Below are positions 43,910-64,000 of a stretch of DNA of 64,000 bases, in pieces. Location: assembly GCA_963665095.1 (NCBI GenBank), contig OY762069.1, positions 1,472,001 through 1,536,000 on the forward strand, written 5' to 3'. The stretch is from an uncultured Desulfobacter sp. (GTDB taxonomy: Bacteria > Desulfobacterota > Desulfobacteria > Desulfobacterales > Desulfobacteraceae). Under the pieces are notes generated by a model. That model had not been told where the DNA came from, did not search any database, and saw only the letters and a program-made list of their open reading frames with translations. Position numbers and translations under genes: made by a program. The first letter of the stretch is position 1. The number at the start of each line of letters is the position of its first letter.

Positions 43910-44356
43910 ATGATAATAAAGGTCAAAGCTGATATCAAGCAAATTTTCAAGCAGGGCAAAAATTTTACATGGCCAAAACCGTCACGATGTCCACATTGCA
44001 ACGACTCCAGGCTGTGGGGACACGGCTTTGTACTCTCCTTTTTTGATGGATTTGATCAAGGGGTGTATTTGAAGCGATATCGCTGCCCCTATTGCAAAAC
44101 CGTATTCAAATTGAAGCCATATGGTTTTTTCAAGAGGTTCCAGGCCAGTATCTGGCAAATCCTTACCAGCATTATGAGTCGTCTATACACTGACCGGTAT
44201 CTGCCGGAACTCTCCTGGAACCGACAGCATTTTTGGTTTACTGCATTGAAACGAAATATAGCGGCCTACCTGTCCAACAGTTGGGACAAAGGTGTGGTTG
44301 CTGGTTTTATCAAGCTAATCGGTATGGGTAAAATCCCGGTTACCAGTTCAATTTAA
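43910..44356 (+). CDS. Transposon zinc-finger accessory protein (DUF6431-like)
   Basis: CPHC....LWGHG and RYRCPYC motifs. Confidence 0.75.
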   Translation: MIIKVKADIKQIFKQGKNFTWPKPSRCPHCNDSRLWGHGFVLSFFDGFDQGVYLKRYRCPYCKTVFKLKPYGFFKRFQASIWQILTSIMSRLYTDRYLPELSWNRQHFWFTALKRNIAAYLSNSWDKGVVAGFIKLIGMGKIPVTSSI

Positions 44357-44459
44357 CCATGGGGCTGGATCAGGTTTAAACCACCCTACCGAAGGCTGTG
44401 ATTTACCGAAGGATCATACTGTCATACAAGCCCTTAGAACCAAATTTTAAGGAGGAAGT

Positions 44460-45716: not shown

Positions 45717-46522
45717 GTGAAATGTATCGCACCTTTTTTGGCTTATCCAGGGAGGCCTTCCCGGCGCAGATAGAAATTAATGATATCCTGGTTACCCCGG
45801 AGGTCTCGGGCGTTAAAAATCGGATTGATTATTCCTTAAGACTTGGCTGCAGTGCGGTTATCACAGGGGATGTGGGCAGCGGAAAGTCCACCGCCTTAAG
45901 GTATGCCGCCTCATCCCTACACCCTTCGGAATACAAAGTCTTTTATGTTACGGCCTCAAGCGGTTCCATCATGGAACTTTACCGGCAGATTGTTGAAGAA
46001 CTGGGCATAGAGCGGACATCGACGTCCCGCGCTGTTATGATCTCCATTATTAAAAATGAAATACGTGAATTCGTCCTGGGAAAAAAGATCAAAACCGTTT
46101 TGATTATAGATGAGGCATCTCTGCTTCGCATGGAAGTCTTTGCCGAACTTCACACCCTGGTTCAATTTGAAAAAGACGCCATGCCCTGGCTGCCTGTGAT
46201 CCTTGCAGGTCAGCCGACATTGATAGATAAGCTTCAGTACCGGACGTCAATCCCGTTTGCATCCAGGATTGTGGCTAAAAGCCATCTGGATGGTCTGGAT
46301 GTGGCTGGAATGAAAACTTACCTGATCCATCATTTAAAACTATGCGGTGTTGACACCAACTTTTTTTCTGACCAGGCGGTGACTGCGATTCATCAAGGCT
46401 CCGGCGGCCTTTTACGAAAGGCGAATAATCTTGCCAGAGGCTCATTGATTGCTGCTGCGGCAGAAAAATCAATGACGGTATCTGCAGAGCATGTCCGCAT
46501 TGCTTCATCGGAGATTTTTTAA
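45713..46522 (+). CDS. ExeA-family AAA+ ATPase (transposition helper)
   Basis: GDVGSGKS Walker A, IIDEA Walker B, LAGQP; ATGA overlap with the transposase. Confidence 0.9.
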   Translation: MSEMYRTFFGLSREAFPAQIEINDILVTPEVSGVKNRIDYSLRLGCSAVITGDVGSGKSTALRYAASSLHPSEYKVFYVTASSGSIMELYRQIVEELGIERTSTSRAVMISIIKNEIREFVLGKKIKTVLIIDEASLLRMEVFAELHTLVQFEKDAMPWLPVILAGQPTLIDKLQYRTSIPFASRIVAKSHLDGLDVAGMKTYLIHHLKLCGVDTNFFSDQAVTAIHQGSGGLLRKANNLARGSLIAAAAEKSMTVSAEHVRIASSEIF

Positions 46523-48433
46523 GAAAAAACAGCCATAGAGCAGAATATTACGATTTCGGTGAAACGGAGCCGGGCTCTGCTGAGGAGCAACCTGGTAAGG
46601 GATAGCCGGAAGCAGGCAGCATTGAATAATGCGCCAGGGGAAGTGGGGATTACCTGCTTCCCCTTTCTGCTTTATTCAAGCTGTTCTGCCTATGCCTTAA
46701 AAACCTACTGAGAAGGAGCGCAGCGACTTCTGTAGCTGTCTTAAATAATATGGAAAAGATTTAATCTGTTCAAAATAATTAGAAAATTTAAGTCAGGATA
46801 AAATGCGACTCAACAATAATAAAATCACCTGTTTCAGACATTGCCCTGATACCTGAAAACGTGGTTAATGAACGTTTGATATCAAACCCCGGAACCGAGA
46901 GTCTGGCTTTTTCGATAATGACTTCTAACGCTTTGGACGTCGTATCCGTATCAACCGGCAAAAATAGATCCTCGGCATCCGGTCCGATCATAAGGTTTGC
47001 ATGAACGGTTGGCGTTACCAAGATTCCCTTTCCCTTTGGCCCAGGCGCTTGAAAGATAACCTTGTCAGCCATATGTGCCTGGTCTTTTCCCAATAATAGA
47101 TATTGACCTTTACGTGGCTTAATGGTCAAAGGATCACCTAAAATTGCGGCTATTTTTCCACTGGCAAGTCCTGCAGCGTTGATAATATTTTTCGTTTCGT
47201 AGGTTCTGTTTACAGTTGTTACTTTAAAGCCTTCCAAATTTTTCTTTATATCTTCAACACCTTCTGAAAATTTAAATTCTACACCATTTGCAATGGCATT
47301 TTCAGACAGCGCTATTGTGAATTCATATGGTGAGGTGATTCCAATACTTGGAATGTACACGCCACCTAAGACTTCTGGATTGACATAAGGTAATAATTCA
47401 AGCATCTCTTCCCGGGACTTCATCACCATATCGGTTTGACCGACTTTTATGCCGTTTTCAATTTGTCTGTCTATGGTTTTAAAATCCTCCTCTTCAAAGG
47501 CCAGCATCACCCCGCCAGTCGATTTATATCCAAAATGCAATTCTGACTCTAACTGTTTATACATGGCATTACCCTTTATACACAGCTCCCCTTTGAGTGT
47601 GCCGTACTTACCCGCGTAACCGCCATGTACAATCCCGCTATTGGCCTTTGATGCGCCTAATGAGACATCGGATTCTTTCTCAAAGAGTGCGATGGATACG
47701 TTGCTGTATTTTGATAGGTTCCTTGCAATTGCGCATCCCACAACGCCTCCACCAATAATTATGATGTCATACATAAATTTCTTCCTCGCTTAAAATAGAA
47801 TCGTGTCTACTGGTGCCCTGAAATAGGCCTTTTTAACATACAACAGCATCATCTATCAAAACGTAACTATTCACCCTGATCCGCCATCAGGTTACCATCT
47901 GCAGCGTTGGCTGCAAGGCAAAAGGCTTGCTGAGTATACGTATACACCTCTAAGGGTGTGATCAGGGAAAAATTTTTGTTTCCACAGGGATATTGAATTC
48001 CTTAAAAATCACGGTGACCAGATCAATGGCTGGTCCTCCAGATGATCGCCCAACCATTTAGAAAAGAACCATGAAGTGAACTGAGTGATTAGATCATTCA
48101 TCCCGCAGCAGACAAGGATGTGTCAACCCTTCATTCTTTCACCCAAGGCAATAGCCTTATCCTTCTCGTCAGATTAAAGCCAATTAGAGAGGACATACTT
48201 TTAATAATAGTGTTGGGTTTTGAATTCACACCGGGTCCATTCCGATAATGATGTAGTCATCTGGTTCTGAGTTGATATTTTGCTCTCTTTTGTATTCTAA
48301 AATTTTCATTGTAAAGGTTTGCATACTCCATTTCAGAAACCATTATTGGGTTGATAATTGAATTTGAAGTTAGTATAGGACAACTATTTGATCATGAAAT
48401 GTAGTTGTTCAAATTTGAGAAAAAATTGTTAAT

Positions 48434-50035
48434 ATGATGATGCATATAAATCCGACCACGACAGAAACAGATGAACTACCAATCATTCCCATTGTTGATA
48501 TTTTTGCCGGCCCGGGGGGGTTGGGAGAAGGTTTCTCCGCTTTTCAATACAAAAATAATAATATTTTTAAAATTGTGTTTTCCGTCGAGAAGGACTTTTT
48601 CGCACACCAGACTTTAATGTTGAGAAGCTTTTTAAGGAATTTTGGTAAAAACAAATTTCCTGATGAATACTACGCATTCATTAGAGGAGAAATATCACTT
48701 GAAGATTTATACTCAGCGTTTCCCAAAGAAAGTGATTTGGCCCAAGGTGAAGCCTGTCACGGGACTTTGGGTGAAATTGATCAGTCGAAATTGGACAATA
48801 AAATAACTAAGGCCATTAATGGGGTTAAAAACTGGGTGCTAATCGGAGGTCCGCCGTGCCAAGCCTACTCAACAGTCGGTAGGTCTCGAAATAAGGGTAA
48901 ACAAGAGTATGTCCCCGAAAAAGATGATAAGCATTTTTTATATAAGGAATACCTTAGAATAATTGCGCACAACTGGCCTGCTGTTTTTATAATGGAGAAT
49001 GTAAAGGGGATCTTATCTTCAAAAATAAAGGGGAATTTAATTTTTCCTCATATTTTGTCTGATTTGAAAGATCCTGCACGGGCATTTAATAATGGAACGG
49101 GAGAAAAACAATATAAATATAAAATTTTTTCTTTAGCAAAGCCTCCAGATAGTGGTAGTGTTCAAGGCTTTCCTGTGTATAAAAATGTCCAAGATTATAT
49201 CATAAAAAGTGAAGAATATGGGATTCCTCAAACAAGGCATAGAGTTATTCTGCTTGGCATAAGAGAAGACTGTTTTAAAGAGAATCCCTCTATCCTCAAA
49301 AAATCCAAGCCAGTTTCTGTAAAGAAAATTATAGGGGGGTTACCGAAGCTCCGGAGTGGATTTTCAAGGGGAAAAGATTCTGGAACTCGATGGCTTAACT
49401 GGCTGTCCAAAATTCCTGAAAATCCATGGGTTATAGAAAAATCAGGTAACGAACTCAATCAAAAAATCAGGAGACAAATTGTTACAGATGTAAAAAAAAT
49501 CAAACTACCTAAACACGGAAGGGGTGGTGAGTATATTCCTTGCCGTGTGGCAGTTGATTGTCTCCAGGATTGGTACCTGGATCCAAAAATAAAGGGCGTA
49601 TGTAACAGTACAACCAGGGGGCATATGGATACAGATCTTTATCGGTATTTTTATGCAGCATGTTTTTCAAAAGTTAAAAAGAACGCCCCTGTACTTTCAA
49701 AATTCCCCGACAGTCTGCTTCCAAATCATAAAAATGCCCAAAGACCCAGCAAGCACGGAAATTTTGCAGATCGTTTCAGAGTTCAGGTCAGTTCAAGACC
49801 CTCAACCACGATTATGAGCCATATTGCCAAGGATGGGCATTACTACATACATTATGACCCCAGACAATGCAGGAGTCTCACTGTAAGAGAGGCTGCAAGA
49901 CTACAGACTTTTCCAGATAATTATTTTTTTTGTGGTGCAAGAACTCAACAATACACACAGGTTGGCAATGCGGTCCCCCCATTTCTGGCCTGCCAAATTG
50001 CCGAAGTCGTATTTAAAGTGCTTTTTAAAAGATGA
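48434..50035 (+). CDS. dcm: DNA (cytosine-5)-methyltransferase
   Basis: Motifs I FAGPGG, IV GGPPCQ, VI ENV, VIII QTRHR, IX REAARLQTFP, X GNAVPP. Confidence 0.95.
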   Translation: MMMHINPTTTETDELPIIPIVDIFAGPGGLGEGFSAFQYKNNNIFKIVFSVEKDFFAHQTLMLRSFLRNFGKNKFPDEYYAFIRGEISLEDLYSAFPKESDLAQGEACHGTLGEIDQSKLDNKITKAINGVKNWVLIGGPPCQAYSTVGRSRNKGKQEYVPEKDDKHFLYKEYLRIIAHNWPAVFIMENVKGILSSKIKGNLIFPHILSDLKDPARAFNNGTGEKQYKYKIFSLAKPPDSGSVQGFPVYKNVQDYIIKSEEYGIPQTRHRVILLGIREDCFKENPSILKKSKPVSVKKIIGGLPKLRSGFSRGKDSGTRWLNWLSKIPENPWVIEKSGNELNQKIRRQIVTDVKKIKLPKHGRGGEYIPCRVAVDCLQDWYLDPKIKGVCNSTTRGHMDTDLYRYFYAACFSKVKKNAPVLSKFPDSLLPNHKNAQRPSKHGNFADRFRVQVSSRPSTTIMSHIAKDGHYYIHYDPRQCRSLTVREAARLQTFPDNYFFCGARTQQYTQVGNAVPPFLACQIAEVVFKVLFKR

Positions 50036-50460
50036 TGGCTGAAATGGATAACTTATCAAAAGAAAAACGCAGTTGGAATATGGCTCAAATTACAGCTGCA
50101 AATACAAAGCCGGAAATTAAAGTTCGATCCATTTTGCATAGAGCAGGTTTCCGTTTTCGGCTACATAGAAAAGACCTACCAGGAAGGCCTGATATTGTTC
50201 TGCCAAAATACAATACTGCTATTTTCGTACACGGATGCTTCTGGCACAGGCACTTCGGATGCAAATTTGCCTATTTCCCCAAATCCAGGATCGAATTCTG
50301 GAAGGAAAAATTTGAAAAGACGGTCAAAAGGGATGAATTCGTTCAAATAGAGTTAAAAAAAGCTGGTTGGCGGGTGATTGTCGTATGGGAATGTGAAATC
50401 AAATCGAATGACATTGAGTCAAAACTTAAATCATTAATATTGAATAGGGACGACAACTGA
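50032..50460 (+). CDS. vsr: Very-short-patch repair endonuclease
   Basis: RSWNM...NTKPE, LPGRPD, FVHGCFWH, VWEC. Confidence 0.95.
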   Translation: MMAEMDNLSKEKRSWNMAQITAANTKPEIKVRSILHRAGFRFRLHRKDLPGRPDIVLPKYNTAIFVHGCFWHRHFGCKFAYFPKSRIEFWKEKFEKTVKRDEFVQIELKKAGWRVIVVWECEIKSNDIESKLKSLILNRDDN

Positions 50461-52310
50461 CACTTTCACCGATACAAAATCAAATCGTTCAATCTCCTGC
50501 AGGAAATATGCTTCTTGTAAAAGCCGGGCCTGGTACAGGTAAAACCTACAGCCTGATTGAAAGAATAAAATATCTTGTGGAACATGAAAAGTTGGAACCG
50601 GCTGTTCAGCTTCTCATTCTAAGTTTTTCCGTTGCCGCCGCTCAGGAAATAAAAGGCAGACTTCAACAGGCTGTAGAAAAACAAAGCTTTGATGATGAAC
50701 TGTTATATGTAAATATTCGAACCTTCGACTCCTTTGCATCCGGCTTCATGTATAGCTGGGACCCTGATATAAAACTTGAAGATAAAAACTACGAATCCCG
50801 AATTAAAATGGCAACGGAGTTGATCAACAATGTGGAGGGAGCTGGAGCTCGTCTGAAAAGTTACAGGCATATCATGATTGACGAGATTCAAGATCTGGTT
50901 GGGCCCAGAGCCTTGTTCAGCCTATCAATTATTAAAACAGCAGAATGTGGGTTTACGCTATTTGGTGACCCTGCTCAATCAATTTATAATTTTTTAAGAA
51001 AAGACGATCAGGAAGGCCTTACTTCGGACGAGTTTATTCTTAATGTCAAAAAAGCGTATCCAAAAACAAATGAGATCAATCTTCTTAAAAATTACAGAGT
51101 CGGCGACAATATAGAACTTCGGAGTATCGCAGAAGGAGGGAGGCAAAAACTTCTGGCCTGCACTCCGAACGAAGCATATTTTTATTTAAAAAATATATTT
51201 TCTGATTTAAAAGATTTTGGGAACATTAACGATATAACCCTGCCCTCAGATTTGCATACTTCAAAAACCGCGGTGCTATGCAGGACAAATGGGCAGGCCC
51301 TTCTTGCCGCAGGGCAGTTTTTTAAAAAAAACGGAAGATTTTTTATAAAAAGATCGGAAGAAGAAGCCTGCATCCAACCATGGATTGGCCGTCTATTGTT
51401 TAACTGGCACAGCCAGGTGATTAAAAAACAGGAATTTATCAAGTCTCTTTCCGAACTTGGGCATTCATTTTTTGTACAAGCAGATTCAATTTGGTCAGAT
51501 TTGGTAAGGCTTACGAAAACCAATGGAAATGCTGTTTCAGCTGTCACATTAAGAAGGATTTTGCTTGAGGGCGACTGTTTTGCCATTGATGAGTTCAGTC
51601 CTGGGCCTGATGAAGTAATAATTTCATCCATTCACCGTTCCAAAGGCAGAGAGTTCGATAACGTTGTCCTTGTTGTAAAAGAAGATATAAGGGAAGAGGA
51701 TTTTCTTGATGAAGGCCGGGTACTGTTTGTTGGTTTGACCCGGGCACAAAAGCAGCTTTTCAAGTTATCAGAAAGAGGGGGTGCTGGGCTAAAAAAAGTT
51801 CGGGAACGGTGGATCCGTATCATGTCTAACAGACAGGGAAACCTTTTGTTAACAGCAATTGAACTTGGAATTTCTGGCGATATCGATATTCATTCGCCAG
51901 TCTGTTTAAAATTTTTTGATTATGATTTAGATGAAATAAAACAGGGGCAGACTGATATTTGGAGTAAAGTCAGACGGGGGAGCGCCGTCCGGCTGAAATA
52001 TTGGGAATGTCAAAACGGAATACCTGTTTATTCAGTGGAAGTGGAGATTGATCATAATTTTATTGCCCTTTCCTGGACAACGATACATTTCGGGAGTGAA
52101 ATTCGAAAAATCCTTCAGGAAATAACCCAAAGAGGAGTTATCAAAAAATTTCCTACCGAGATAACCGATGTCTGGGTGAAAGATATAGTTACTGAGGTGG
52201 GAAACTTAGGACATGAAGACATTCCCCGTTCTATTCTGATTTCAGGGGTGTGGCTTGGGATAAGGATTCAGGGGCTGGGAAACTGTAGAGAGTGGAGGGA
52301 GATGAATTGA
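50457..52310 (+). CDS. UvrD/REP-like SF1 helicase with a C-terminal extension
   Basis: AGPGTGKT, IDEIQD, GDPAQSIY, NYR, SIHRSKGREFD, VGLTRA. The Q-motif LSPIQ lies upstream of ATG 50508, implying a CTG start at 50457. Confidence 0.85.
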   Translation: MTLSPIQNQIVQSPAGNMLLVKAGPGTGKTYSLIERIKYLVEHEKLEPAVQLLILSFSVAAAQEIKGRLQQAVEKQSFDDELLYVNIRTFDSFASGFMYSWDPDIKLEDKNYESRIKMATELINNVEGAGARLKSYRHIMIDEIQDLVGPRALFSLSIIKTAECGFTLFGDPAQSIYNFLRKDDQEGLTSDEFILNVKKAYPKTNEINLLKNYRVGDNIELRSIAEGGRQKLLACTPNEAYFYLKNIFSDLKDFGNINDITLPSDLHTSKTAVLCRTNGQALLAAGQFFKKNGRFFIKRSEEEACIQPWIGRLLFNWHSQVIKKQEFIKSLSELGHSFFVQADSIWSDLVRLTKTNGNAVSAVTLRRILLEGDCFAIDEFSPGPDEVIISSIHRSKGREFDNVVLVVKEDIREEDFLDEGRVLFVGLTRAQKQLFKLSERGGAGLKKVRERWIRIMSNRQGNLLLTAIELGISGDIDIHSPVCLKFFDYDLDEIKQGQTDIWSKVRRGSAVRLKYWECQNGIPVYSVEVEIDHNFIALSWTTIHFGSEIRKILQEITQRGVIKKFPTEITDVWVKDIVTEVGNLGHEDIPRSILISGVWLGIRIQGLGNCREWREMN

Positions 52311-53993
52311 ATAATCATGTTAATGCAAGAAATGATTTGATCAATTACCTGAAACGGGATCAGTTTGGCCCTTATGGCGGTGAAGTAGAGGAATTACCTG
52401 AAAACCCACTTAGAAGATATATGGTCGGTATACTTCATCCTCAGGGCAGTACGTTCACAGAAGCAAAAAATGACGGCGGTGTAGGTGGAGAATCCGGTAC
52501 TAAAGCAGATGACACAGAAATGGGCCTGAGTATGAGTAACACTCTTGCGCCATCCAGTTTCGGGCTTAGTTTCGCCTGTTCTAATGAAATAGACGCAGTT
52601 GAGGTATACGTCTCTGCCGGTAAGTATTTGCCAGCAGAAATTAGTCACATGGAAGCTGACAGCTCTCCGGACGGAAATAAAACAGTAAAGTGGAAAAGAG
52701 AAGATATCCGATGGTCCGGCCCGATTTTTATTAACGAAGCTGGAGATCAGAAAAAGTTACTCTTTGGTGAATGTCTGACAATAAGAGCCAGAGTCCGATC
52801 TGTTGATAAATTCGGAAAAAGATCTGTGACTCTTTCTGTAGTTAATGAGCAAAAATGTTCAGCAGACAGCAGGCAAAAAGACCGTGCGTTACGCAGCTTT
52901 TTTCAGGTTGCGTTTGGAGCCGTCAGCCTTGATGAAAAATTTCCTTTTGTCAATCGAACAACCGGGATAACTGACTCTTCTGTTTCAGAAGAAAATGCCC
53001 TGCGTCTTATTTATAGAAATATTCATACTTATGCGGTTGGGCATGGCTGCTCTGCTGACTGGGAAAAAGATTCTGAAAAAGAAAGATGCCGAAGCGTTTT
53101 TTCAAGTTTTGTTCCAACACATACTGTTTACCCTATGATTCAACCCAAGGATTACGGCCTTCCAGAGTACAGTCTTAAAGAAATATCAGAGAGTTCACTC
53201 CCAGATCTCCAGAGTCTGTTATCAGTTATACCGGAAAGTTATTCGTATTGGATTGAAGATCTTGAAAAGCAGATTCCAGCTCTGGATAAAAACCTCCAGC
53301 CTCAGGCTAAGGAGCATATTCGATTGTGTTGTGAAGCCTCAAACCGGATTCGTAATGGAATAGATCTGCTGGGAGAAGATGAAATGGTATTTTCTGCTTT
53401 TATATTAATGCATAAAGCTATGTTGCAGCAGGTTGCAAGATCTCAATGGATCAAAAACAATTATCCGGAAGAAGGTCCTCAGTTAACTAATGAACATGCC
53501 TGGTATCCATTTCAGATTGCTTTTATTTTGCAGAATCTGCCATCGTTGGTAGATCCTGGTTCAGATGACAGGAATACAGTTGATTTGTTGTGGTTTCCTA
53601 CAGGCGGCGGAAAAACCGAAGCATATCTGGGGATTATTGCTTTTATGCTTTTTTTCAGGCGATTGAGAAGCCTTAAAAAAGGGGGAAATGGAGGCGGAAC
53701 ATCGGCACTGATGCGATATACACTTCGATTGCTTACAGTGGATCAGTTTTACAGGGCGGCTCTTCTGATATGTGCATGTGAAACAATTCGACAGGATGCT
53801 TCCGTTTCCATCGCGGGTACGGCACCGATAAGTATCGGGCTGTGGGTTGGATCCGAAGCATGCCCCAATACCCGAAAAGATGCACGGGAAAAACTTGAAG
53901 CTATTAAAAAAGGCCATGACGCAGGCGAATCAGGCGATCCCCTGAAGATTAAACAATGCCCGTGGTGCGGAACCGAAATAATCCCTTCAGATT

Positions 53994-55310
53994 CAGTAGT
54001 GTCCGGTTAGGTTGTTGCATATAAAAAACATCTAAAATTATTCAAAAAAACGTCATTTTTATGTTGACAAATGTGCGTATAAATTTTTGCGCGCCTTGAA
54101 AAATTTTATCAAGGAGCCCAAATGACGCGCATTTCAATTACCAAAGCCACAATACAGTCCCTGAATTTTGACAAGTTTCGTGACCCTCTGATAAGGTCGT
54201 TTCCACAAGCACCAGAATTGAAATCTCGAGGAGACCGACCGTTAAAAATGACATTCGAAGACCAGATAAATGCCCTGATTTATTTCCATCTGCAGGAACA
54301 CAAATCAGCCCGGCATTTAGTCCAAGATCTCAAGGAAAATATTTTTGCCAAAGAACATATTGCTCCGGAAGGCGGTATCAGCCGCAGTAGCTTTTGCGAA
54401 GCAGTCAACCACCGAGGGCTTGAACAACTGCAATTTTTGTTCGAAGACCTTTATAAACAGGCTGTTGGGTGTCTACCAAAGGAGCATGCTGAGTTGGGCG
54501 ATCTGGTATCCATTGACGGCAGTCTTATAAATGCTGTTCTTTCAATGCATTGGGCCAACTACAGGAAAGGAAGCAAGAAAGCCAAAGCACATTGCGGATT
54601 TGATATTAATCACGGCATTCCAAACAAAATATTTCTGACAGAGGGCAATGGAGCTGAGCGTCCTTTTGTTCCAAAGATACTTTCCAAAGGGCAAACCGGT
54701 GTCATGGATCGTGGTTATCAATCACATCACGATTTTGATCTGCTTCAGGCGCAGGGCAAGCATTTTGTTTGCCGTATAAAAGCCAAAACAACCAGAACGG
54801 TAATTGATACTCACGAAGTCAACGCTGACAGTTACATCTTTTATGACGCTCTGGTTCTTCTTGGCACTCCGAATCAAAACCAGACGAAAATGCCGGTTCG
54901 GGTTGTTGGCTATAAAATTGCCGGTGTGAAATACTATGTGGCAACGGACAGGCATGATTTAACAGCAGAACAAATAGCGACCGTTTATAAACTCCGGTGG
55001 ACCATTGAAGATTTTTTCAAATGGTGGAAAGAGCACCTGAAAGTTTACCACCTCATTGCCCGTAGTGAATATGGCCTCATGGTGCAAATCCTTAGTGGCC
55101 TCATCACGTACCTGTTGCTGGCAATCTATTGCCGAGACGAATTTAACGAGAAGGTTTCTGTTAAAAGGGTTCGACAGCTAAGAACAGCCATCTTGAATGA
55201 TCTGATCGAGCAGAACCAGGGTGTGACTGAGGGTTTAAACAGAGACAATATTGTCAAAGATCAAAAAATCACAAGTACAGCGCAAGCAAAAACCTAACCG
55301 GACACTACTG
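53994..55310 (+). mobile_element. IS4-family insertion sequence, 1317 bp, intact
   Basis: Perfect 20-bp IRs CAGTAGTGTCCGGTTAGGTT and 9-bp TSD CTTCAGATT (53985-53993, 55311-55319). Confidence 0.97.
54122..55297 (+). CDS. IS4-family transposase
   Basis: IDGS, MDRGY, YKLRWTIEDFFK.WK (YREK) motifs. Confidence 0.95.
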   Translation: MTRISITKATIQSLNFDKFRDPLIRSFPQAPELKSRGDRPLKMTFEDQINALIYFHLQEHKSARHLVQDLKENIFAKEHIAPEGGISRSSFCEAVNHRGLEQLQFLFEDLYKQAVGCLPKEHAELGDLVSIDGSLINAVLSMHWANYRKGSKKAKAHCGFDINHGIPNKIFLTEGNGAERPFVPKILSKGQTGVMDRGYQSHHDFDLLQAQGKHFVCRIKAKTTRTVIDTHEVNADSYIFYDALVLLGTPNQNQTKMPVRVVGYKIAGVKYYVATDRHDLTAEQIATVYKLRWTIEDFFKWWKEHLKVYHLIARSEYGLMVQILSGLITYLLLAIYCRDEFNEKVSVKRVRQLRTAILNDLIEQNQGVTEGLNRDNIVKDQKITSTAQAKT

Positions 55311-56783
55311 CTTCAGATTATGAAATTCCTGATAAAGTGAATCCCATGAGGATAAACTGTCCGAATTCAAAATGTAATTTTAATGAGGGCCTTCCCATCT
55401 GGCTGATAGATACGGATGTCTATCATTTTCGACCATCTTTGATAATTGGGACTGCTGATAAATTTGCCAGAATTCCATGGGTTAAAGAAGCCGGGAATAT
55501 TTTTGGATGTGACGGGAAATCAGAGCCCCCCGAGTTGATTATTCAGGACGAGCTCCATCTGATATCCGGGCCCTTGGGCACGCTTGCCGGCCTGTATGAA
55601 ACCGCTGTTGACAAGTTATGCTGTTCAAAAGACGGTTTCGGACCGAAGATAATTGCCTCAACTGCAACCATCCGCAATGCAGAAAGGCAGGTTAAAGACT
55701 TATTTTGCAGGAAAGTGGCCCAGTTTCCTCCTGCCGGACTTAATTACAATAATTCTTTTTTTGCCAAGGAGGACAGAAATGCCCCGGGAAGAATTTATGC
55801 CGGTGTTTTCACTCCAGGTACGAGCCCTACAACGGCCTTGGTAAGAACATTTGGTATTCTTCTGCACGGAGGGAAAAAAATTGAATACGATGATGGTGTC
55901 AGAGATGCTTACTGGACTTTGATGGGGTATTTTAACAGTTTGCGAGAACTTGGCGGGGCCAGTGTGCAGGTGGAAGACGATGTCAATGATTACCTCAAAG
56001 TCTGTGCAGAAAGGGACGGAGACAAGAATGATTACAGAATGGTTCAATATAAAAAAGAGCTGACAGGCAGAGTCCCTTCTGCTGAATTGGATGAGATTAG
56101 ACTGGGATTGTCAAACTCTTTTCCCGATGAAACCTGTTATGACGCAGTATTGGCAACAAATATGATTTCCGTCGGATTGGATGTCCCCCGTTTGGGGGTA
56201 ATGGCCGTTGTAGGGCAGCCTAAATCTACTTCGGAATATATACAGGCAACCAGCCGTATAGGCCGGCGTTTTCCCGGGCTCGTTGTTGTATTATACAACT
56301 GGACTAGATCTCGTGATAGATCTCACTATGAACGGTTTAATGCTTATCATTCGAAACTATACAGCGAAGTCGAGGCGACAAGCGTTACCCCTTTTTCTTC
56401 AAGAGCCAGGGACAGGGGGCTTCATGCCGTAGTGATAAGCCTTGTCCGGCACCTGATCCCCAGTATGAGGGATAATTCCGCTGCCGTGGAATTTAAAGGG
56501 AACTCTGACGCAGTTAAACAGATGGTAAAATATATTCTTGAGCGAGTGAACAATATAGATGACAAAGAAACATTTGATACAAAAAAAGCTCTGGAAGAAA
56601 TTCTTGATAAATGGGACAGACTCGCTCTTGACGGAGACCTTGAATATCAAAAAAAGGGAATAAAAGATGTCAGGTCTCTTATGATTCCAATAGAAAAAAT
56701 AAAATTAGACTCCAATTCATTTGGCACACTTAATTCACTGCGAAATATTGATCCGGCTGCAGGATTGAAACTGGAGGGGTAGC

Positions 56784-58499
56784 ATGAGTTCAATTGGAGA
56801 AATACAAAGAAGTCAGTTGATTACAACCTATGGGATTGGTTCTATTTATGATGCCCGTGACTATTCTGTTATCATTGCCTGCCAGGATGACTGGGAGATA
56901 AAGAATACAGAAATTATTTATGAAGAACGTCTCCAGAAAAAGCTTGGCAAGGAATATTTTAGACAGCCTGGTGTTATCGAAAATATTCCCACTATTCCTT
57001 CATATAGATTTCCGGAATGGGTTTTCTGTCCAAAATGTAAAAGTTTAAGACATATTCGCAAACTTAATGAAAGAAAACAAAAAAAGTGCGCTATATGCAA
57101 GGTAAACTATGTTCCTGCAAGGTTTATAATTGCTTGTGAAAATGGGCATTTGAGCGATTTCCCATGGGAATGGTGGGTTCATGAAGGAGAAATTTGCGAG
57201 ACTCCCAAGCTAAAAATTCATACGACCGGCAGCACAACTTCACTGGCAGGGATAAGTGTTAGCTGTGAGAATTGCCCAGCGTCCCGTACGCTTGAGGGGA
57301 TTTTTGGTCGATACGCATTAAAAGGATTCAAGTGTTTTGGAAAAAAACCATGGATGGGTCCTTATGAGAAAGGTGAAGAGTGTTCAGAATCGCCAAGGGT
57401 TCTACAGCGTGGTTCGGCCAGCGTTTATTATTCCCAGACGGAATCTGCCATCTCAATCCCCCCATACTCTGAAAGAATTCATGATTTTTTAAGGCAGTTT
57501 GATGACGACCTTGAATATATCCCGGAAAACTTATTAGAAAAATGGCTGGAAGGCAAGATGGAAAAAACCGGTGAACGGTTTGATATGGAAGCTTTGCTCA
57601 AAGCAGTAAAATTTAGAAAAGATCCGGATAAAAATAAAAATCAACATGACTCTGATTTACGGCAGGCTGAATACGAAGCGTTGTGCAATCCTGGGAAGAT
57701 GGATCCGGCAAATGAATTTGCTGCTGAACAGGGCAGTGTCCCAATAATGTACAAAGAACAAATTTCAAAAATTGTTCTGGTACATCGGCTGCGAGAAGTG
57801 AAGGTCTTAACAGGATTTAACCGAATCATCCCTGACAATGGTAAGACCGCTCCTATAAGTAAAAAAGAACAAAATTGGCTGCCTGCCGCCGAAATGAAAG
57901 GCGAGGGAATTTTTATAGAACTTGCGAGCCGCTCGATGGAGAAATGGGTTTCAAATTGTAGCTCTCAAATTTCAAACAGGATTAAAAAACTTGAAAAGAA
58001 TAGACAGACACTGCTTGAACATAACAAGGTTTGGACGGTTGAGCATACTGTTACACCTCAGTTTTTAATCCTGCATACATTGGCTCATATTCTTATCCAG
58101 CAGTTGATCCTTGACTGTGGATATTCCAGTTCTTCTCTGAGAGAACGGCTTTATTACAGCGATGGCAGAAAAGGGCAAAAAAAGATGAACGGTTTTTTGA
58201 TTTATACTGCTACTTCTGATTCAGAAGGAAGTTTAGGGGGGCTTGTTAGACAAGGAGAACTTTCCCGTTTTACAGCTGTTTTGAATAAATCCTTTGAAAA
58301 TGCGCGCTGGTGTTCAAGTGACCCACTGTGCATAGAATCAGAAGGACAGGGTAATAATTCGTTAAATCTTGCTGCATGCCATTCCTGCTGTCTTCTTCCG
58401 GAAACTTCATGTGAATATCGAAATTCTTACCTGGATCGTGGAGTAGTAGTCGGATTAGGAGACGCTTCAACACAAGGATTTTTCCCTGAAATTTTATAA
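56784..58499 (+). CDS. drmB: DISARM DrmB-like DUF1998 protein
   Basis: RSQLITTYGIG, ARFIIAC..GHL.DFPW, RLREV..L.GF.R, GEGIF, LHTLAH, SSLRER, EGSLGGL, CSSDPLC, AACHSC..LPETSCE. Confidence 0.92.
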   Translation: MSSIGEIQRSQLITTYGIGSIYDARDYSVIIACQDDWEIKNTEIIYEERLQKKLGKEYFRQPGVIENIPTIPSYRFPEWVFCPKCKSLRHIRKLNERKQKKCAICKVNYVPARFIIACENGHLSDFPWEWWVHEGEICETPKLKIHTTGSTTSLAGISVSCENCPASRTLEGIFGRYALKGFKCFGKKPWMGPYEKGEECSESPRVLQRGSASVYYSQTESAISIPPYSERIHDFLRQFDDDLEYIPENLLEKWLEGKMEKTGERFDMEALLKAVKFRKDPDKNKNQHDSDLRQAEYEALCNPGKMDPANEFAAEQGSVPIMYKEQISKIVLVHRLREVKVLTGFNRIIPDNGKTAPISKKEQNWLPAAEMKGEGIFIELASRSMEKWVSNCSSQISNRIKKLEKNRQTLLEHNKVWTVEHTVTPQFLILHTLAHILIQQLILDCGYSSSSLRERLYYSDGRKGQKKMNGFLIYTATSDSEGSLGGLVRQGELSRFTAVLNKSFENARWCSSDPLCIESEGQGNNSLNLAACHSCCLLPETSCEYRNSYLDRGVVVGLGDASTQGFFPEIL

Positions 58500-58520
58500 A
58501 CAAAATCGAAGGCTTTTAAA

Positions 58521-60260
58521 ATGGCAAAGATGATACCGAACTTTATTCATCCTGACTGTAAAAGCAACGCTGAAAAATTAATATTCCAAAAATTTAGCGC
58601 TGAGTTGTCGGATAACTATTCGGTACTGCATTCACTTGGAATTGCTAAACATGGTGGAAAATTACGAGGAGAGATTGATTTCGTAGTTGTGTGTCCCAAG
58701 GGTATTCTCTGTATTGAAGTAAAGGGGGGCAGAATAAAACAGGAAAACGGAATTTGGTATTTTACAAACAAATTTGGTGAATCTTTTGCAAAAAAAGAAT
58801 CGCCTTTTGAGCAGGCATCTTCTGGAATGTATGCTCTACGAAAAGGGCTGGAAAAAAAGTTCGGCTGGAATTCGCCGCAATGTCAATCTATTTTAGGTTA
58901 TTGTGTCTTCTTTCCTGATCAGAAATTCTCACTGGAATCCCCGGAATGGGATCTTAATCGACTTATTGATGAAAAAAAATTAACAGAATCAATCTCAACC
59001 CTGATAGAGATGCAATATAATTATTCCATGGAGGAAATAGCGCGGATTACAGGAAAGAAAAATTTCCCTTTTATGTCCCAATCTGAAGTAAGCCTTTTGT
59101 TAAGATATCTTAGGCCGAATTTTGAAAAAATTCCTTCACTGTCATCTATAATTCAAGAAAACCACCGACATCTGCTTAAAATGACAGAGGAGCAGTTTGA
59201 CATACTGGACCAGTTGGCGGCCAATGACCGCATACTGATTCAAGGTGGCGCAGGCACAGGCAAAACGGTTCTTGCCGCCGAAAAAGCCCGTCGAGAAATT
59301 CAGAAAGGCAAACGTGTGCTCTACCTGTGTTATAACAAGCTTCTGGCTACCCATATCCAAGCCAGTTTCCAGGACGAAATAAAACATGGCTTAATAGAAA
59401 TCAACACCCTGCATAGCTATGCAAAAAAAATAATTAAAAATGCCGGACTTGCTTTGCGGCTGAATGAGAATACAGACGAGGATCTTTTCAGAGAAAAGTA
59501 CCCTGATGTTTTTGAGCAGGCAGTTGTTGAATTGTTTGAGGCGCCGCCTTTTGATATCTGCATTGTTGATGAGGGACAAGATTTAAGATTCGAAGCTTAT
59601 ATAAAAATGATAGACTGGCTTATCGAGGGCGGTATCCAGAATGGAAGATGGGTGTGGTTTGAAGATAGCCAACAGAATATTTTTAATGTCGGCGTCATTG
59701 ACGGTATTTCTATAGTTGAAGAAAGCAGACCCGTTGTCTGCCAGTTGACCAGGAACTGTAGAAACACAAAACCAATAAGCATCTTTAACAGTTTAACCAC
59801 AGGTGTCCCAAAACAGAAATGCCTCGTAAACAAGGGCCTGAAAGTCGATTCAACTTTTTTTAGAAGTAAAAAGCATCAACAGAAACTTCTGGAGAATCTC
59901 TTGCAAAAACTTTTGGGGGGAGGCATTGTGGCTGAAGACATTGTTTTATTGTCTCCATTTACAAAACAAAAATCCGTTTTAGATAATTTAGACTCAATTG
60001 CCGGGATGACGCTGAAAGAATATCCTGCACAGAAATCCAATCACTCTAAAATCCTTCAATATACAACTGTTCAGAAATTTAAAGGTTTGGAATCAAAAGT
60101 GGTGATTGTTACTGATATACTGAAATTAAAAGAATCTGTTGCTAAAAGTATCAACTATGTTGCGTTCTCCAGAGCAACTTCTTATCTTCAAGTGCTTATG
60201 CATGAAAGCACAGAAAAGGACTATGGCGACCTTGCATTTGAATTTGCATTGAGAGATTAA
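58521..60260 (+). CDS. NERD nuclease domain fused to an SF1 helicase-like ATPase
   Basis: SNAE, EIDFVVV....ILCIEVKGG (PD-(D/E)xK-type NERD), GGAGTGKT, DEGQD, NCRNT, FKGLES, YVAFSRA. Confidence 0.9.
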   Translation: MAKMIPNFIHPDCKSNAEKLIFQKFSAELSDNYSVLHSLGIAKHGGKLRGEIDFVVVCPKGILCIEVKGGRIKQENGIWYFTNKFGESFAKKESPFEQASSGMYALRKGLEKKFGWNSPQCQSILGYCVFFPDQKFSLESPEWDLNRLIDEKKLTESISTLIEMQYNYSMEEIARITGKKNFPFMSQSEVSLLLRYLRPNFEKIPSLSSIIQENHRHLLKMTEEQFDILDQLAANDRILIQGGAGTGKTVLAAEKARREIQKGKRVLYLCYNKLLATHIQASFQDEIKHGLIEINTLHSYAKKIIKNAGLALRLNENTDEDLFREKYPDVFEQAVVELFEAPPFDICIVDEGQDLRFEAYIKMIDWLIEGGIQNGRWVWFEDSQQNIFNVGVIDGISIVEESRPVVCQLTRNCRNTKPISIFNSLTTGVPKQKCLVNKGLKVDSTFFRSKKHQQKLLENLLQKLLGGGIVAEDIVLLSPFTKQKSVLDNLDSIAGMTLKEYPAQKSNHSKILQYTTVQKFKGLESKVVIVTDILKLKESVAKSINYVAFSRATSYLQVLMHESTEKDYGDLAFEFALRD

Positions 60261-60277
60261 AATATATTCGAGGGCAG

Positions 60278-63200
60278 ATGTCAGAAATCAAAATAATTTA
60301 TGATCTCCAGAGATTCACAAATGAAATCGATTCTCTTTATCAACTGATTGCAGAAGAACAAGGTCGGTGTCTTGCAAATTATGAGCATGTTGGGCGGACT
60401 GTACCTGAGCGGATTTCATTTGAAGAGATTGATTTAAGTCCTCTTAAAAACAGACTGCTGTCCGTTCATAAGACTCTTGAATATAAGGGAAGGTTTTTAT
60501 CTCCCCAAAGAGCCCGAAAGGCCCGAATCATAGCTATCGGCGGGATATGTGAACTCATTAAAGATGGGTATGTCGGTAAGTTTTGGGACCTTTACAGAAG
60601 TCATATTGGTGAAGATAACCGAGGTTTCGTATATGACAAAATATGGGCTAAAGGGTTTAAGGAATCTGGAATTGAATTGATTCAGGGAGAGAGGAGGGAA
60701 TTTGTTCAAACCCTTGTCATGGAAAGTGGGGTGCCGAAGGAGAGAACAGGAGATATAATTTCCTTTTTTGAAATTTACTGGCGATACTTGAGGCCTATGG
60801 ACGTAAAGGAAATTATTTCAGATTTAAATGAGAATTCATATCTTTCTTTTCGCAAAGTGCCAAGGCTGGAACGTAGTAAACTAAAAAAACTGTCAGAAAA
60901 TGCTTCAGAATATACAAGAGCATTTGTAAGGGCTGTAGACAGGTTGACTGCGGTATTTGATTTCATCTCTGAATCTGAAAAAATTCATGGCGGAAATGTA
61001 AGAGAGTTTGCAAACGAAATTTTTAAGGGAACAGGCATTCATCCTTTTAGTTTTCTTCGTAATCACGAACAGCTCGAACTCTTGTATAAAAAACTGCTTG
61101 GGTATGTTACACCCTCAAAATTTAAAAAAATTATAGAAACTAAACCTCCCAATACCCTCATCACCACGCCTGATGGGAAAAAGATAAAAGCGCACCAGTA
61201 TCACAATATTATTTTTGGAGAACATTTACTGGAAAACGCATTATTTTTTTGTGTGCCCGATAAAAATTTTGATCTAAAAAAATTGAAATCGATTCAACAT
61301 AATAGAATTGAAAAGTTCGGCAATTCAGTGTTACTGAAATCGAATGCTGATATTATTCCACGGGTTAATTCGTCTTTAAGAAATGACCTCGTTAATACTT
61401 TTTATTTCAATAAGGAAAAATGTGGAAATATTTTTTATTTCCGAGATATATCTGGATGCAGCATACACCTTAAAACTTCAGATAAAAAAGTTAATGATTT
61501 CATATATGGTGATGATGGATTCTCTGGTAATTGTTTTTTGATGGCAGAAAAAAAGAATGATACGATTTCCCTCCATCTTAAGGTAAAGACCTTACGATTA
61601 TTGTGCAGGGGGCTTCGAGATAAAAATATCCTGTTTAAAATTCCTGAATATAATTTGCTTATTCATGAAGGAAGGTGTGATCCAACAGGCTTGGCAAGAT
61701 GTTCAGAAAGAAGGTTCCCCATAGAAAACCCCCAACCCGGCAATATAGAAATCCAGGCAACAAAAATTAATAAGCATGGAGGAGACGCCCCTGTCTTTTT
61801 AAGCAACGGAGGCAAGGCTTCGATATTAGAGTGTCTGGATGATGTAATGCTTTTTCATGCAGGCTCTGGATATCGTATCCGGCCCAAAAAGGCTGGTCAA
61901 GGCTACTCAATCGGTGGAGACAGTTTCTTTCTGTTTTGCTCAGAAGCTGTGTTGCAAAAACGTGTTAGAAAAGCAAACCTCAGGATTGAAAAGTCAATAA
62001 AATATGGAAAATATTTTGTTTCTCTTATTGTCTGGAAAGACACCAGTTTACCCTGTTCTTTCTCTATTGAAAATAATATCGGTGATAATATCACATGGAA
62101 ATTTGAAAAGTGTGTCAATTTTAATATTTGGGTGGAGAAAAAAAAGAAGGACCGCGCAACTCATCTTAAATTTAATGGATACCAGGGTCAGCACCCGAAT
62201 AACTTTGAACTCAAGATATATCCTTTCCCCTCGATTGAATATCAGAAAACATTGTTTTGGAGTATTTCTTTGAATGACTGCTCACCGTATATCATAGAAG
62301 TGGGAAATTGTTGTCAGGATGAGCACAAAAAATCATGTTTTTATGAGAACTATTTAAGTGAGCTGTTAATGCCGGTTTGGAGTGGACAAAAACCAAGCAA
62401 TACAAAAGTTGAGATAGCATTGTGTACACTTGATTTTGTTTTTTCCATGACCCAATTTTATCTATTGCCTGATATAGCCATCAAGCTTCCCGAAGCTGTT
62501 CGATTAAACGACGAATTTAAGATCAAAGTATTATGGGGAGAAAATCAGAAGTGCCAGGATGTTCTTTTAAAAAATAGAAGAGGCAGAAGTCTTGTCACAG
62601 CAGGATTTCAATTCAAAAACAATTCGTGGCAGATATTTAAAAAGCGTCATATTTCAGATTTTTTAATCCCAGATGTTGATACCGTCGTCAGAATAGAAGC
62701 CGAACAGCCTCTTAGAAGTATATTGTTGGGTAATCGCGAACGGCTATATAAAGAGCGTCTAAGAGATTTGAAAGTTACAGAATTAGCCGAATATGACCTG
62801 CTTGTCGTAGAGCCGGGTAATAATATCCCTTCTGTTTCAGTAAATGGCATAGCGTATAATGATTCTTTTGTAAAAAATGATTTCGGGGTATGGTCTTTAC
62901 CTCTTGGTGCAATGCCAGGTCTTAACCAATTTCAAAATTCAATAATAATCAACGCCGGAGATGAAAGTTCCACGTTTAATATTTTCTGTCCAATGACAAT
63001 TAGGAATATCTGTTTTGATGATAGTCTTTTTTGCAATGCTTTGAGCGGGAAATGTTCTTTTGCGGGTCCGAATGGATCCGAAATAGTAATTCGTGTTTAT
63101 CCTGAGAAAGATAAAAAAGAAGATATATTTTTAGAAAAAAAATATGTGGCACCTGGGATGCAAGATGTTGACATTGATTTCTCACTTGATCTACCTGTTT

Positions 63201-63574
63201 TTGAAGAATTTTTGCCAGATCAACTTTTTGTTAGTGTCTTTTATTCTAATGAAAAAGGTGGATTAATTGAGTATGAAAAGTCGTTTTGTGTTAGTTCAGA
63301 ACGACACTTATGTAAAACAAAGTTTCATAAAATAAAACAAAGAATAGATCAGGACCTCAAGGAACACAAAACATATTCTGCCAAACGCCTTCTCGAATTG
63401 GCTGCTCCTTATGTCCCCGGTTTCCAGGAAAAATGGTTTAACGTTCAATGGAACAGGGTTTGGGGTGAGTATATTAGGAAAACTTTAGATTCGGCAGCAT
63501 CTCAGATTACGACAATTCTCAAAGAAAACTATCTGATTGATTTTACAGGTGATGAATACAATGGGAAAAAGTGA
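60278..63574 (+). CDS. Large hypothetical protein (1098 aa), defence-operon member
   Basis: Long ORF, RBS GAGGG, 17 bp after the NERD gene; no confidently recognisable catalytic motif. Confidence 0.85.
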   Translation: MSEIKIIYDLQRFTNEIDSLYQLIAEEQGRCLANYEHVGRTVPERISFEEIDLSPLKNRLLSVHKTLEYKGRFLSPQRARKARIIAIGGICELIKDGYVGKFWDLYRSHIGEDNRGFVYDKIWAKGFKESGIELIQGERREFVQTLVMESGVPKERTGDIISFFEIYWRYLRPMDVKEIISDLNENSYLSFRKVPRLERSKLKKLSENASEYTRAFVRAVDRLTAVFDFISESEKIHGGNVREFANEIFKGTGIHPFSFLRNHEQLELLYKKLLGYVTPSKFKKIIETKPPNTLITTPDGKKIKAHQYHNIIFGEHLLENALFFCVPDKNFDLKKLKSIQHNRIEKFGNSVLLKSNADIIPRVNSSLRNDLVNTFYFNKEKCGNIFYFRDISGCSIHLKTSDKKVNDFIYGDDGFSGNCFLMAEKKNDTISLHLKVKTLRLLCRGLRDKNILFKIPEYNLLIHEGRCDPTGLARCSERRFPIENPQPGNIEIQATKINKHGGDAPVFLSNGGKASILECLDDVMLFHAGSGYRIRPKKAGQGYSIGGDSFFLFCSEAVLQKRVRKANLRIEKSIKYGKYFVSLIVWKDTSLPCSFSIENNIGDNITWKFEKCVNFNIWVEKKKKDRATHLKFNGYQGQHPNNFELKIYPFPSIEYQKTLFWSISLNDCSPYIIEVGNCCQDEHKKSCFYENYLSELLMPVWSGQKPSNTKVEIALCTLDFVFSMTQFYLLPDIAIKLPEAVRLNDEFKIKVLWGENQKCQDVLLKNRRGRSLVTAGFQFKNNSWQIFKKRHISDFLIPDVDTVVRIEAEQPLRSILLGNRERLYKERLRDLKVTELAEYDLLVVEPGNNIPSVSVNGIAYNDSFVKNDFGVWSLPLGAMPGLNQFQNSIIINAGDESSTFNIFCPMTIRNICFDDSLFCNALSGKCSFAGPNGSEIVIRVYPEKDKKEDIFLEKKYVAPGMQDVDIDFSLDLPVFEEFLPDQLFVSVFYSNEKGGLIEYEKSFCVSSERHLCKTKFHKIKQRIDQDLKEHKTYSAKRLLELAAPYVPGFQEKWFNVQWNRVWGEYIRKTLDSAASQITTILKENYLIDFTGDEYNGKK

Positions 63575-64000
63575 TAACCTTGATGCAAAAAAAGCATGTT
63601 TTGAGAGCTTGCTTTCGGAAATGCCTTGGAATGATTTAGTCAGCGTAATAAAATTCGAGGGTAAACTAAAAAAAGGCGGTTTTCGTCTTAACTCTAAAAA
63701 TCGTAATGTAATTCAAGCAAACTTGATTCCAAAATGTTTGGCAAACCAAGAGTTGCAGTTCTCTTTTTTTAAGACATGGTTTAATGCTAAATCAGAATAT
63801 TTTGATTTGCTCGAGCCTTTTTTTAATTCTGAAAAACATGATGAACTGATTAAAAATTTAGAATTAGAAAATGGATTTTATACCTTTGATGATGAGTATT
63901 TTTTAAAATTTTTAAAAATATTAAAAGCGAATGATGTCGAAAAATTCATTATGTTAAGTCCAATCCACTTTACTGAGATGCAGAAATCTATTCTTTTGAG
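63561..64000 (+). CDS. Hypothetical protein, 5' part (runs off the window)
   Basis: MGKSDNLDAKKACFESLLSEMPW... open to the window end; overlaps the previous stop by 14 nt; RBS AGGTGA. Confidence 0.75.
   Translation, partial: MGKSDNLDAKKACFESLLSEMPWNDLVSVIKFEGKLKKGGFRLNSKNRNVIQANLIPKCLANQELQFSFFKTWFNAKSEYFDLLEPFFNSEKHDELIKNLELENGFYTFDDEYFLKFLKILKANDVEKFIMLSPIHFTEMQKSILL

Follow-up and report, generated by a model that had tools for sequence, protein, structure and literature searches.

DISARM class 2 comprises drmE-drmA-drmB-drmC-drmMII (PMC9252829, 10.1101/2021.12.28.474362). 5' overhangs activate DrmAB and serve as its loading sites; 5-methylcytosine (5mC) dampens it, and DrmC is dispensable for its function (PMC9142583; 10.1101/2021.12.28.474362). 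In Druantia III, DruH is partnered by DruE, a single-chain YprA-DUF1998 helicase, often with phospholipase D (PLD). ARMADA type II combines a YprA-like helicase, a methylase and a GajB-like UvrD helicase, ArmD, which is essential (10.1101/2025.09.15.676423). DrmAB modules with additional helicases have also been described: a SAR11 DISARM-like operon contains DrmAB, a DrmMII-type methylase and helicases without DrmC (PMC13712998), and Tiamat type III-C brings a cytosine methylase, GajB, DrmA and DrmB together with a Tiamat-like protein (10.64898/2026.09.30.754977). The present analysis concerns a DrmAB-based operon that begins at position 48434 of a 64,000-nucleotide stretch (the window) of contig OY762069.1 from an uncultured Desulfobacter sp. 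Six of its genes, from uvrD to a gene for a 396-amino acid (aa) protein, form a core of fixed order, and one of them encodes a 1098-aa protein whose N-terminal domain is probably a remote homologue of DruH. The operon is a conserved locus and not an already defined system, falling outside DISARM class 1, DISARM class 2 and Druantia III alike.

Comparison with described systems

By analogy, the operon would work most like DISARM. It shares with class 2 a short-form DrmA (NF038325), whose acidic loop is placed like the trigger loop, a separate DrmB and a DrmMII-like C5 methylase, but it lacks DrmC and DrmE and carries extra UvrD, NERD-superfamily 1 (SF1) helicase, 1098-aa and 396-aa genes. In addition, the methylase position varies and, in small trees, DrmAB lies mostly on a separate branch. 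Unlike DISARM class 1, the operon has neither the SNF2 protein DrmD nor the adenine methylase DrmMI, for which no match was found among the operon proteins. The PADLOC definitions of class 1 and class 2 do not call it as a full system. Similarly to Druantia III, a YprA-family helicase is accompanied by a partner of about 1100 aa with a helical N-terminus, a beta-rich middle and a helical end, and the N-terminal motif of the 1098-aa protein matches that of DruH. In contrast to Druantia III, the helicase is split into DrmA and DrmB, DruE models match none of the operon proteins, the homology spans some 130 residues, the C-terminal domain is much shorter and at least four extra genes are present.

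The YprA-like helicase, GajB-like UvrD helicase and methylase are features shared with ARMADA type II, whereas the SNF2 BrxHII-like helicase, PglX-like methylase, fused YprA-DUF1998-Vsr protein and RelE-fused UvrD of ARMADA (10.1101/2025.09.15.676423) are not seen among the operon proteins. TALON likewise joins a YprA-family helicase to a NERD nuclease, but its ARMADA-like fused helicase, TPR-CSD and TBP genes are not seen here (10.1101/2025.09.15.676423). The combination of DrmAB, a cytosine methylase and one or more extra helicases is common to the SAR11 operon and Tiamat III-C, with DrmC also missing in the SAR11 case; the available text on these two systems, compared without figures, names no DruH-like or coiled-coil gene, and Tiamat III-C has a GHL ATPase (PMC13712998; 10.64898/2026.09.30.754977). 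Bell et al. mention 'many uncharacterized DISARM-like' classes, which the available text leaves undescribed, and neither 'NERD' nor 'DruH' was found in four of their supplements, the large table being covered in part (10.1101/2025.09.15.676423). Nothing closer is described in the available portions of PMC10270631, PMC11090510, PMC9252829 and 10.1101/2025.09.30.679545. Full-text literature searches, the scope of which did not extend to figures, bioRxiv supplements and most subscription papers, returned no DruH/YjiT-like gene in a DrmAB operon.

An earlier note on this DNA had proposed a distinct DrmAB-based system with three helicases. The locus is indeed conserved and different from any defined system, but the idea of DrmAB without DrmC, with a DrmMII-type methylase and helicases, has already been mentioned in print (PMC13712998), as has the related arrangement of Tiamat III-C. 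What appears to be new is the probable DruH-like subunit together with the fixed six-gene core.

Conservation and distribution of the six-gene core

The system is rare. The 1098-aa protein has seven close database proteins, and a profile search extends its family to about 110 representatives (110 at 50% clustering). Thirteen loci were fetched through the alignment of this protein, two of which (L006 and L009) are too short to show the upstream gene. In every one of the 11 loci with enough DNA the NERD gene lies directly upstream of the 1098-aa gene, and drmB precedes NERD in 10/10, the five tabulated loci showing gaps of 15-51 bases. The uvrD-drmA pair and the downstream 396-aa gene are each present in 8/8 loci. 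All six core genes occur in seven loci, with a GC content of 32-55%. Loci L010, L012 and L013 share 99.9% identity with one another, and L008 matches them at 88%; once near-identical loci are collapsed, the seven full loci represent four lineages plus the window. The order from uvrD to the 396-aa gene is constant in these five lineages, which come from microbes only remotely related to one another, at protein identities of 21-70%, the between-lineage values being 38-66% for DrmB and 29-39% for the 1098-aa protein. The six genes are a conserved core and the methylase is movable. The UvrD, NERD and 1098-aa genes are thus conserved neighbours across five lineages, as the earlier note had proposed checking.

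The family was found in 1/101 relatives, 1/401 genomes of the phylum and 1/167 genomes of the phylum of L005, each time in the seed genome. Plasmid searches with the 1098-aa protein and with P0047, P0065 and P0052 gave no match, nor did the NERD protein against plasmids (E 1e-40), and no match was found in viral contigs. DrmB itself scores over the cut-off in 10 of the 401 phylum genomes, the present one included. Nine other DrmB contexts were compared, eight over the cut-off and one below it, with G363 left out for its short contigs. An open reading frame (ORF) with an HKD motif stands beside drmB in seven of these nine contexts, and the NERD, 1098-aa and 396-aa genes are absent from all nine. 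In a 16-row DrmB tree, 6/7 operon loci fall on one branch (98/99), and in a 13-row quick DrmA tree 5/6 do so (Shimodaira-Hasegawa-like approximate likelihood-ratio test, SH-aLRT, 100); neither tree contains reference class 2 sequences. Next to a divergent drmA-drmB pair from the same family of bacteria (L055:6209-11325), neither a methylase nor a PLD nor any further defence gene was detected.

DrmA, DrmB and the NERD helicase-nuclease

All four intact DrmA orthologues reach or exceed the NF038325 (short DrmA) cut-off of 950, scoring 950-1004 bits with one exactly at the cut-off; the scores of the two halves in the window are given in Table 1. The motifs that enclose the autoinhibitory trigger loop (176-232) in Serratia DrmA 7S9V here enclose an acidic loop of some 37 aa, the correspondence being one of position. 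DrmB is encoded by a separate DUF1998 gene. In the NERD protein, residues E18, E51, D53, E66 and K68 and the SF1 Walker A and B motifs are invariant in 9/9 sequences. This protein is a fairly likely candidate for the DNA cutter in place of DrmC.

The earlier note had reported that drmC, drmD and drmE are missing, and in the genome, which is 97% complete, no match to their models passes the cut-off. The HxKxxxxD motif occurs in none of the nine operon translations examined. The best DrmC match (NF038319) reaches 65 bits against a cut-off of 133 and lies 1.27 Mb from the locus; 0/15 NF038317 (DrmD) matches are over the cut-off and none is near the locus; NF038316 (DrmE) has no match. A drmC or drmE gene just beyond position 64000, a possibility raised in the same note, is likewise not present: the 396-aa gene ends at window-equivalent position 64751, 751 bases beyond the window, and is followed by an insertion sequence (IS).

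The 1098-aa protein and its relation to DruH

The motif W..GF...G...RREFVQTL..ESG.P of the 1098-aa protein, which we take to be DruH-like, prompted a profile comparison. YjiT of E. coli scores as DruH3 and matches 11 DruH models. With hhalign, the 1098-aa family reaches a probability of 51% against YjiT as a single sequence, 71-78% against a full-length alignment of 10 DruH sequences and 88% (E 2.8e-6, 126 columns) when the N-terminal profiles are compared. Controls remain far lower: none of 40 column shuffles exceeds 0.34% and none of 40 block shuffles 12%, the reversed profile gives 0.08%, and five unrelated profiles from the operon stay within 0.85%. The match occupies the same place in the 1098-aa protein and in DruH, both of about 1100 aa, and the 15 best domain matches to the DruH hidden Markov model among 112 family proteins all fall at model positions 48-220. 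Hydrophobic periodicity indicates helices over residues 1-300 and strands in the middle for both proteins; for the 1098-aa protein it delineates a beta-rich region at 400-1000 and a short helical C-terminus. DruH itself has six Ig-like domains and a helical C-terminal domain. The N-terminal domain is the best conserved part of the family (40-55% identity, compared with 25-30% in the middle and 15-22% in the C-terminal part). Taken from these profile comparisons, the N-terminal domain is probably a remote homologue of DruH/YjiT. The description of this protein as unknown in the earlier note stands as regards family models, none of which it matches, and needs amending in view of the probable link to DruH.

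Defence by DruH requires the N-terminal residues Arg22, Lys28 and Glu64, and DruH is reported to be a 3'-5' exonuclease leaving 5' overhangs, a catalytic assignment that its authors call speculative (10.64898/2026.05.13.724313). From the sequences we infer that Arg22 is the Arg of DGRPLY, Lys28 the residue six positions later and Glu64 the Glu of AEW. In the 1098-aa protein, E92 lies opposite the invariant Glu of DruH in 3/3 printed alignments and R45 opposite the conserved Arg in 2/3. Within the family R45 is conserved in 44/76 proteins, E92 in 54/76, K95 in 53/76 and E149 in 64/76.

Several observations weigh against the assignment to DruH. Pfam, PADLOC and NCBIfam, DruH models included, give no match to the 1098-aa protein, and 40 of its relatives have no match to a defence family, again including the PADLOC and NCBIfam DruH models. 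The ESM Atlas places it with YjiT_N clusters at 0.87-0.88, which is below 0.9 and serves as a lead only. The hhalign match is pairwise, covers about 130 of 1098 residues and, at 88%, lies under the usual bar of 95%; the nearest subfamily alone reaches 70%, and the other four 36, 20, 2 (S2) and 0.6% (S4). No sequence alignment to DruH extends beyond the N-terminal domain, and the helical C-terminus measures about 90 aa versus about 300 in DruH, where DruE and single-stranded DNA/ATP are reported to bind. The DruH chain 9tud_A, although present in the searched library, was not retrieved by profiles A1 and A2. Arg22, Lys28 and Glu64 (Pseudomonas numbering) were mapped by spacing alone, 42-44 residues in three DruH sequences, and no basic residue occupies the Lys28-equivalent position of the 1098-aa protein.

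By sequence the 1098-aa family retrieves nothing from the PDB, and the PADLOC DruH model PDLC00045 matches 0/401 phylum genomes. Three longer proteins, P0089, P0090 and P0100 (1363-1911 aa), combine the N-terminal domain of this family with C-terminal S1 RNA-binding repeats.

The 396-aa protein

The last protein of the core is helical throughout; its end domains are conserved and its centre forms a coiled coil. Its orthologues in five other loci share 22-30% identity, and homologue searches yield 1 and 3 proteins. Identification as DruC, LmuB or JetC was rejected; the matches are judged compositional because they are limited to the coiled-coil stretch and spread over many families. No match to DruH was found, and an Atlas lead to DUF2325 (0.76-0.82) is too weak. 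At a guess, the protein is a linker or regulator.

Methylase, Vsr and UvrD

The best PADLOC model for dcm is DrmMII (PDLC02649, 293 bits). Orthologues with 48-50% identity are found in L005 and L007 (50% in L007). The orthologous methylase lies upstream of the core in the window and in L005 and downstream in L007; the L005 genome has the full gene set, with vsr preceding dcm. In L008-L010 and L013 the dcm orthologue is replaced by a methylase unrelated to it, which comes with vsr and an EcoRII-type nuclease, and the L015 contig ends too early to show the methylase state. By lineage, the dcm orthologue is present in 3/5, replaced in one and not visible in one. Because its position varies or it is replaced between loci, dcm is accessory and not a fixed part of the system. 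The label 'restriction-modification-like' applied earlier is weakened, since both dcm and vsr move or are replaced. In L008 (14699-23081) the core is followed by an EcoRII-type restriction-modification set with vsr and by a SIR2 plus HerA pair, making up a defence island.

Vsr repairs T:G mismatches that arise from deamination of 5mC, and the present Vsr likely does the same. The Walker A and B motifs of UvrD are invariant in 6/6 orthologues. The start codon of uvrD is a CTG (50457-50459), which is coupled to the stop of vsr and closely preceded by a GGGA ribosome site; it lines up with the Met of the orthologues. The in-frame ATG at 50508 was rejected as the start on the basis of this alignment and of sequencing run X3, where it is replaced by a Lys codon. 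Gene callers limited to ATG, GTG and TTG shorten UvrD by 17 aa. In L011 (391-2257) uvrD is found in two frames, through mutation or assembly error, in a contig otherwise 99.9% like L010.

Interruption of drmA and variation in near-identical DNA

The drmA gene is interrupted by an IS4-family element that has 18-bp inverted repeats and is accompanied by a 9-bp target duplication. The same element has 14 further matches in the genome at 84-99.9%. When it is removed, drmA stays open over 1049 codons in one frame and includes Walker A, DExH and motif VI. Contigs from 4/12 listed sequencing runs were compared, one of which may be the window's own source. Exactly 1326 bases, corresponding to the IS region, are skipped at full depth in contigs of X3 (study P2) and X5 (study P3), and the X5 contig otherwise shows no difference from the window over the aligned parts. 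The break in drmA is therefore recent, as these IS-free contigs occur in near-identical DNA. An assembly artefact or old decay is excluded by the perfect repeats, the target duplication and the IS-free contigs from two studies. On this comparison, the system is likely inactive in the present genome and intact in near-identical DNA.

Run X3 also differs from the window by substitutions, 25 of which are listed (50219-51995) and cluster in vsr and uvrD, with none listed elsewhere in the operon; 45 further rows exist. Among the 25 places, uvrD has 9 synonymous and 12 non-synonymous changes and vsr 1 and 3, too few for a claim of selection, and the cluster looks like a recombined tract. In run X9, a single contig carries a 4-base insertion at 61678 (codon 467) of the 1098-aa gene, possibly a second independent loss of the system.

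Operon layout and genomic setting

Eight co-oriented genes and one IS fill positions 48434-64000 in the order dcm-vsr-uvrD-drmA-drmB-NERD/SF1 helicase-1098 aa-396 aa (Table 1). Junctions are coupled: 4-bp overlaps join dcm/vsr (ATGA), vsr/uvrD (CTGA) and uvrD/drmA (TTGA), gaps of 1, 21 and 17 bases separate drmA/drmB, drmB/NERD and NERD/1098-aa gene, and the 1098-aa and 396-aa genes overlap by 14. Without the IS, the operon has a GC content of 0.390, compared with a genome value of 0.487; 11/1379 windows of 15 kb across the genome are as low. This arrangement and the AT-rich composition reproduce the earlier description in full. A promoter scan 5' of the operon gave 4 sites against 2.7 +/- 1.6 expected and is uninformative.

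Table 1. Features of the operon, in window coordinates
Feature	Position	Strand	Supporting matches
dcm, C5-cytosine methyltransferase, DrmMII-like, 533 aa	48434..50035	+	PF00145, TIGR00675, PDLC02649
vsr, very-short-patch mismatch endonuclease, 142 aa	50032..50460	+	PF03852, TIGR00632 over cut-off
uvrD, GajB/ArmD-like SF1 helicase, 617 aa, CTG start, core gene	50457..52310	+	PF00580, GajB models
drmA 5' part, TTG start, acidic loop, Walker A	52307..53993	+	NF038325, 427 bits
IS4-family element, transposase 54122-55297	53994..55310	+	PF01609
drmA 3' part, DExH box, RecA2, C-terminal helices	55311..56782	+	NF038325, 569 bits
drmB, DUF1998/MZB partner of DrmA, 571 aa	56784..58499	+	NF038324, 509 bits (cut-off 240); PF09369
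NERD PD-(D/E)xK nuclease-SF1 helicase fusion, 579 aa	58521..60260	+	PF08378 and SF1 matches
1098-aa protein	60278..63574	+	hhalign to DruH/YjiT N-terminal domain, Atlas lead YjiT_N, periodicity
396-aa all-helical coiled-coil protein, core gene	63561..64000, on to window-equivalent 64751	+	orthologues

The IS 3' of the 396-aa gene has istA/istB-like genes, named by their look, and unrelated genes follow. Two extra ORFs precede the istA/istB-like genes (L002:4998-8060), one of 188 aa with CxxC motifs and one of 128 aa, neither with an NCBIfam match. Upstream, a 3.1-kb IS at 43718-46817 encodes an rve transposase, an AAA ATPase and a 148-aa ORF; the genome contains no fewer than 13 other near-identical copies of it. 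It interrupts an FAD-dependent oxidoreductase gene, the DAO part of which lies at 46788-47774 and the BFD-like 2Fe-2S part at 43229-43744.

Proposed function and alternative explanations

Judged from its genes, the operon very probably defends against phages. Starting from the observed gene content, order, motifs and absence of drmC, drmD and drmE, the functional steps may be envisaged as follows. The operon would sense the DNA structure of phage DNA: the probably DruH-like 1098-aa protein would engage phage DNA that is forked or resected and lay bare single-stranded 5' overhangs. DrmAB would load at these and translocate, and degradation of the DNA would fall to the NERD nuclease-helicase, which would stand in for the missing DrmC. 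UvrD might be a helper motor, by analogy with the essential ArmD of ARMADA II, and the 396-aa coiled-coil protein might serve as linker or regulator. The 5mC laid down by the methylase could label self DNA in part, its deamination being repaired by Vsr. This explanation as a whole, with a DruH-like primer, a DrmAB sensor-motor and a NERD effector in a defence operon, leans slightly towards the probable. A stronger version, a DISARM-Druantia hybrid class in which DrmAB would be licensed by 5' overhangs that a DruH-family 3'-5' exonuclease/sensor produces, with the NERD helicase-nuclease as the dedicated effector, is put forward tentatively.

One uncertain step is the activity of the 1098-aa protein, which may process DNA ends, a possibility rather than a likelihood, and would otherwise be a sensor or scaffold. 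In the latter case the defence operon would be the same, with the 1098-aa protein as a non-catalytic sensor/scaffold (protein recognition by its beta-sandwich repeats), whether or not its DruH ancestry is true, and UvrD or NERD would make the overhang. The missing Lys28 equivalent and the fast divergence of the middle and C-terminal parts relative to the N-terminal domain agree with such a role. Accounts of DruH itself also differ: it is described as a scaffold without catalytic domain (10.64898/2026.05.13.724758), as an ATP-inhibited binder of single-stranded DNA via its C-terminal part (10.64898/2026.05.12.722862) and, in a paper that regards it as specific to Druantia III, as a protein sensor whose nuclease activity is dimer-dependent (PMC13192584), and the first and last of these papers favour sensor or scaffold. 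Set against this, the N-terminal domain, where the defence-essential residues of DruH lie, is the most conserved part and contains conserved charged residues, and the sensor/scaffold alternative is considered rather unlikely.

The operon could also consist of two modules, dcm-uvrD-drmA-drmB, comparable to Tiamat III-C, and an independent system of NERD, 1098-aa and coiled-coil proteins. A methylase, GajB, DrmA and DrmB do accompany a Tiamat-like protein elsewhere (10.64898/2026.09.30.754977), and the loci inspected exclude about 80 more distant members of the 1098-aa family. The last two genes track DrmB poorly in pairwise identity (rho 0.33 for the 1098-aa protein and -0.11 for the 396-aa protein, from 15 non-independent, near-saturated pairs); this, like the long branch of L005, whose placement is not settled in either tree, counts against the main explanation. 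However, NERD tracks DrmB closely (rho 0.80), drmB precedes NERD in all 10 informative loci, with short gaps in the five tabulated, and the 3' trio occurs without DrmAB in none of the loci fetched, which makes the two-module arrangement distinctly improbable. Less credible still is a DNA-repair cluster of Vsr, UvrD and an MrfA/YprA-like helicase with no part in defence. Repair roles are reported for Vsr, UvrD and YprA-family helicases (10.1101/2025.09.15.676423), but the split DrmA/DrmB layout, the DrmA scores at or over the cut-off, the patchy spread and low GC, the defence neighbours in L008, the IS break and the X9 insertion all argue against it.

Two questions arise for DISARM: what generates the 5' overhang trigger, and which nuclease destroys the DNA, given that DrmC can be dispensed with and is frequently absent. 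The operon itself supplies a candidate for both the nuclease and the overhang source, and a natural intact version exists as the IS-free copy in near-identical DNA. A DruH relative beside DrmAB would widen the DruH family and help to settle the disputed role of DruH. If the hybrid class proposed above is true, the trigger-maker, sensor and cutter of DISARM-type immunity would be united in one six-gene operon, and DruH-like proteins would act for the YprA helicases of either main branch in the defence tree.

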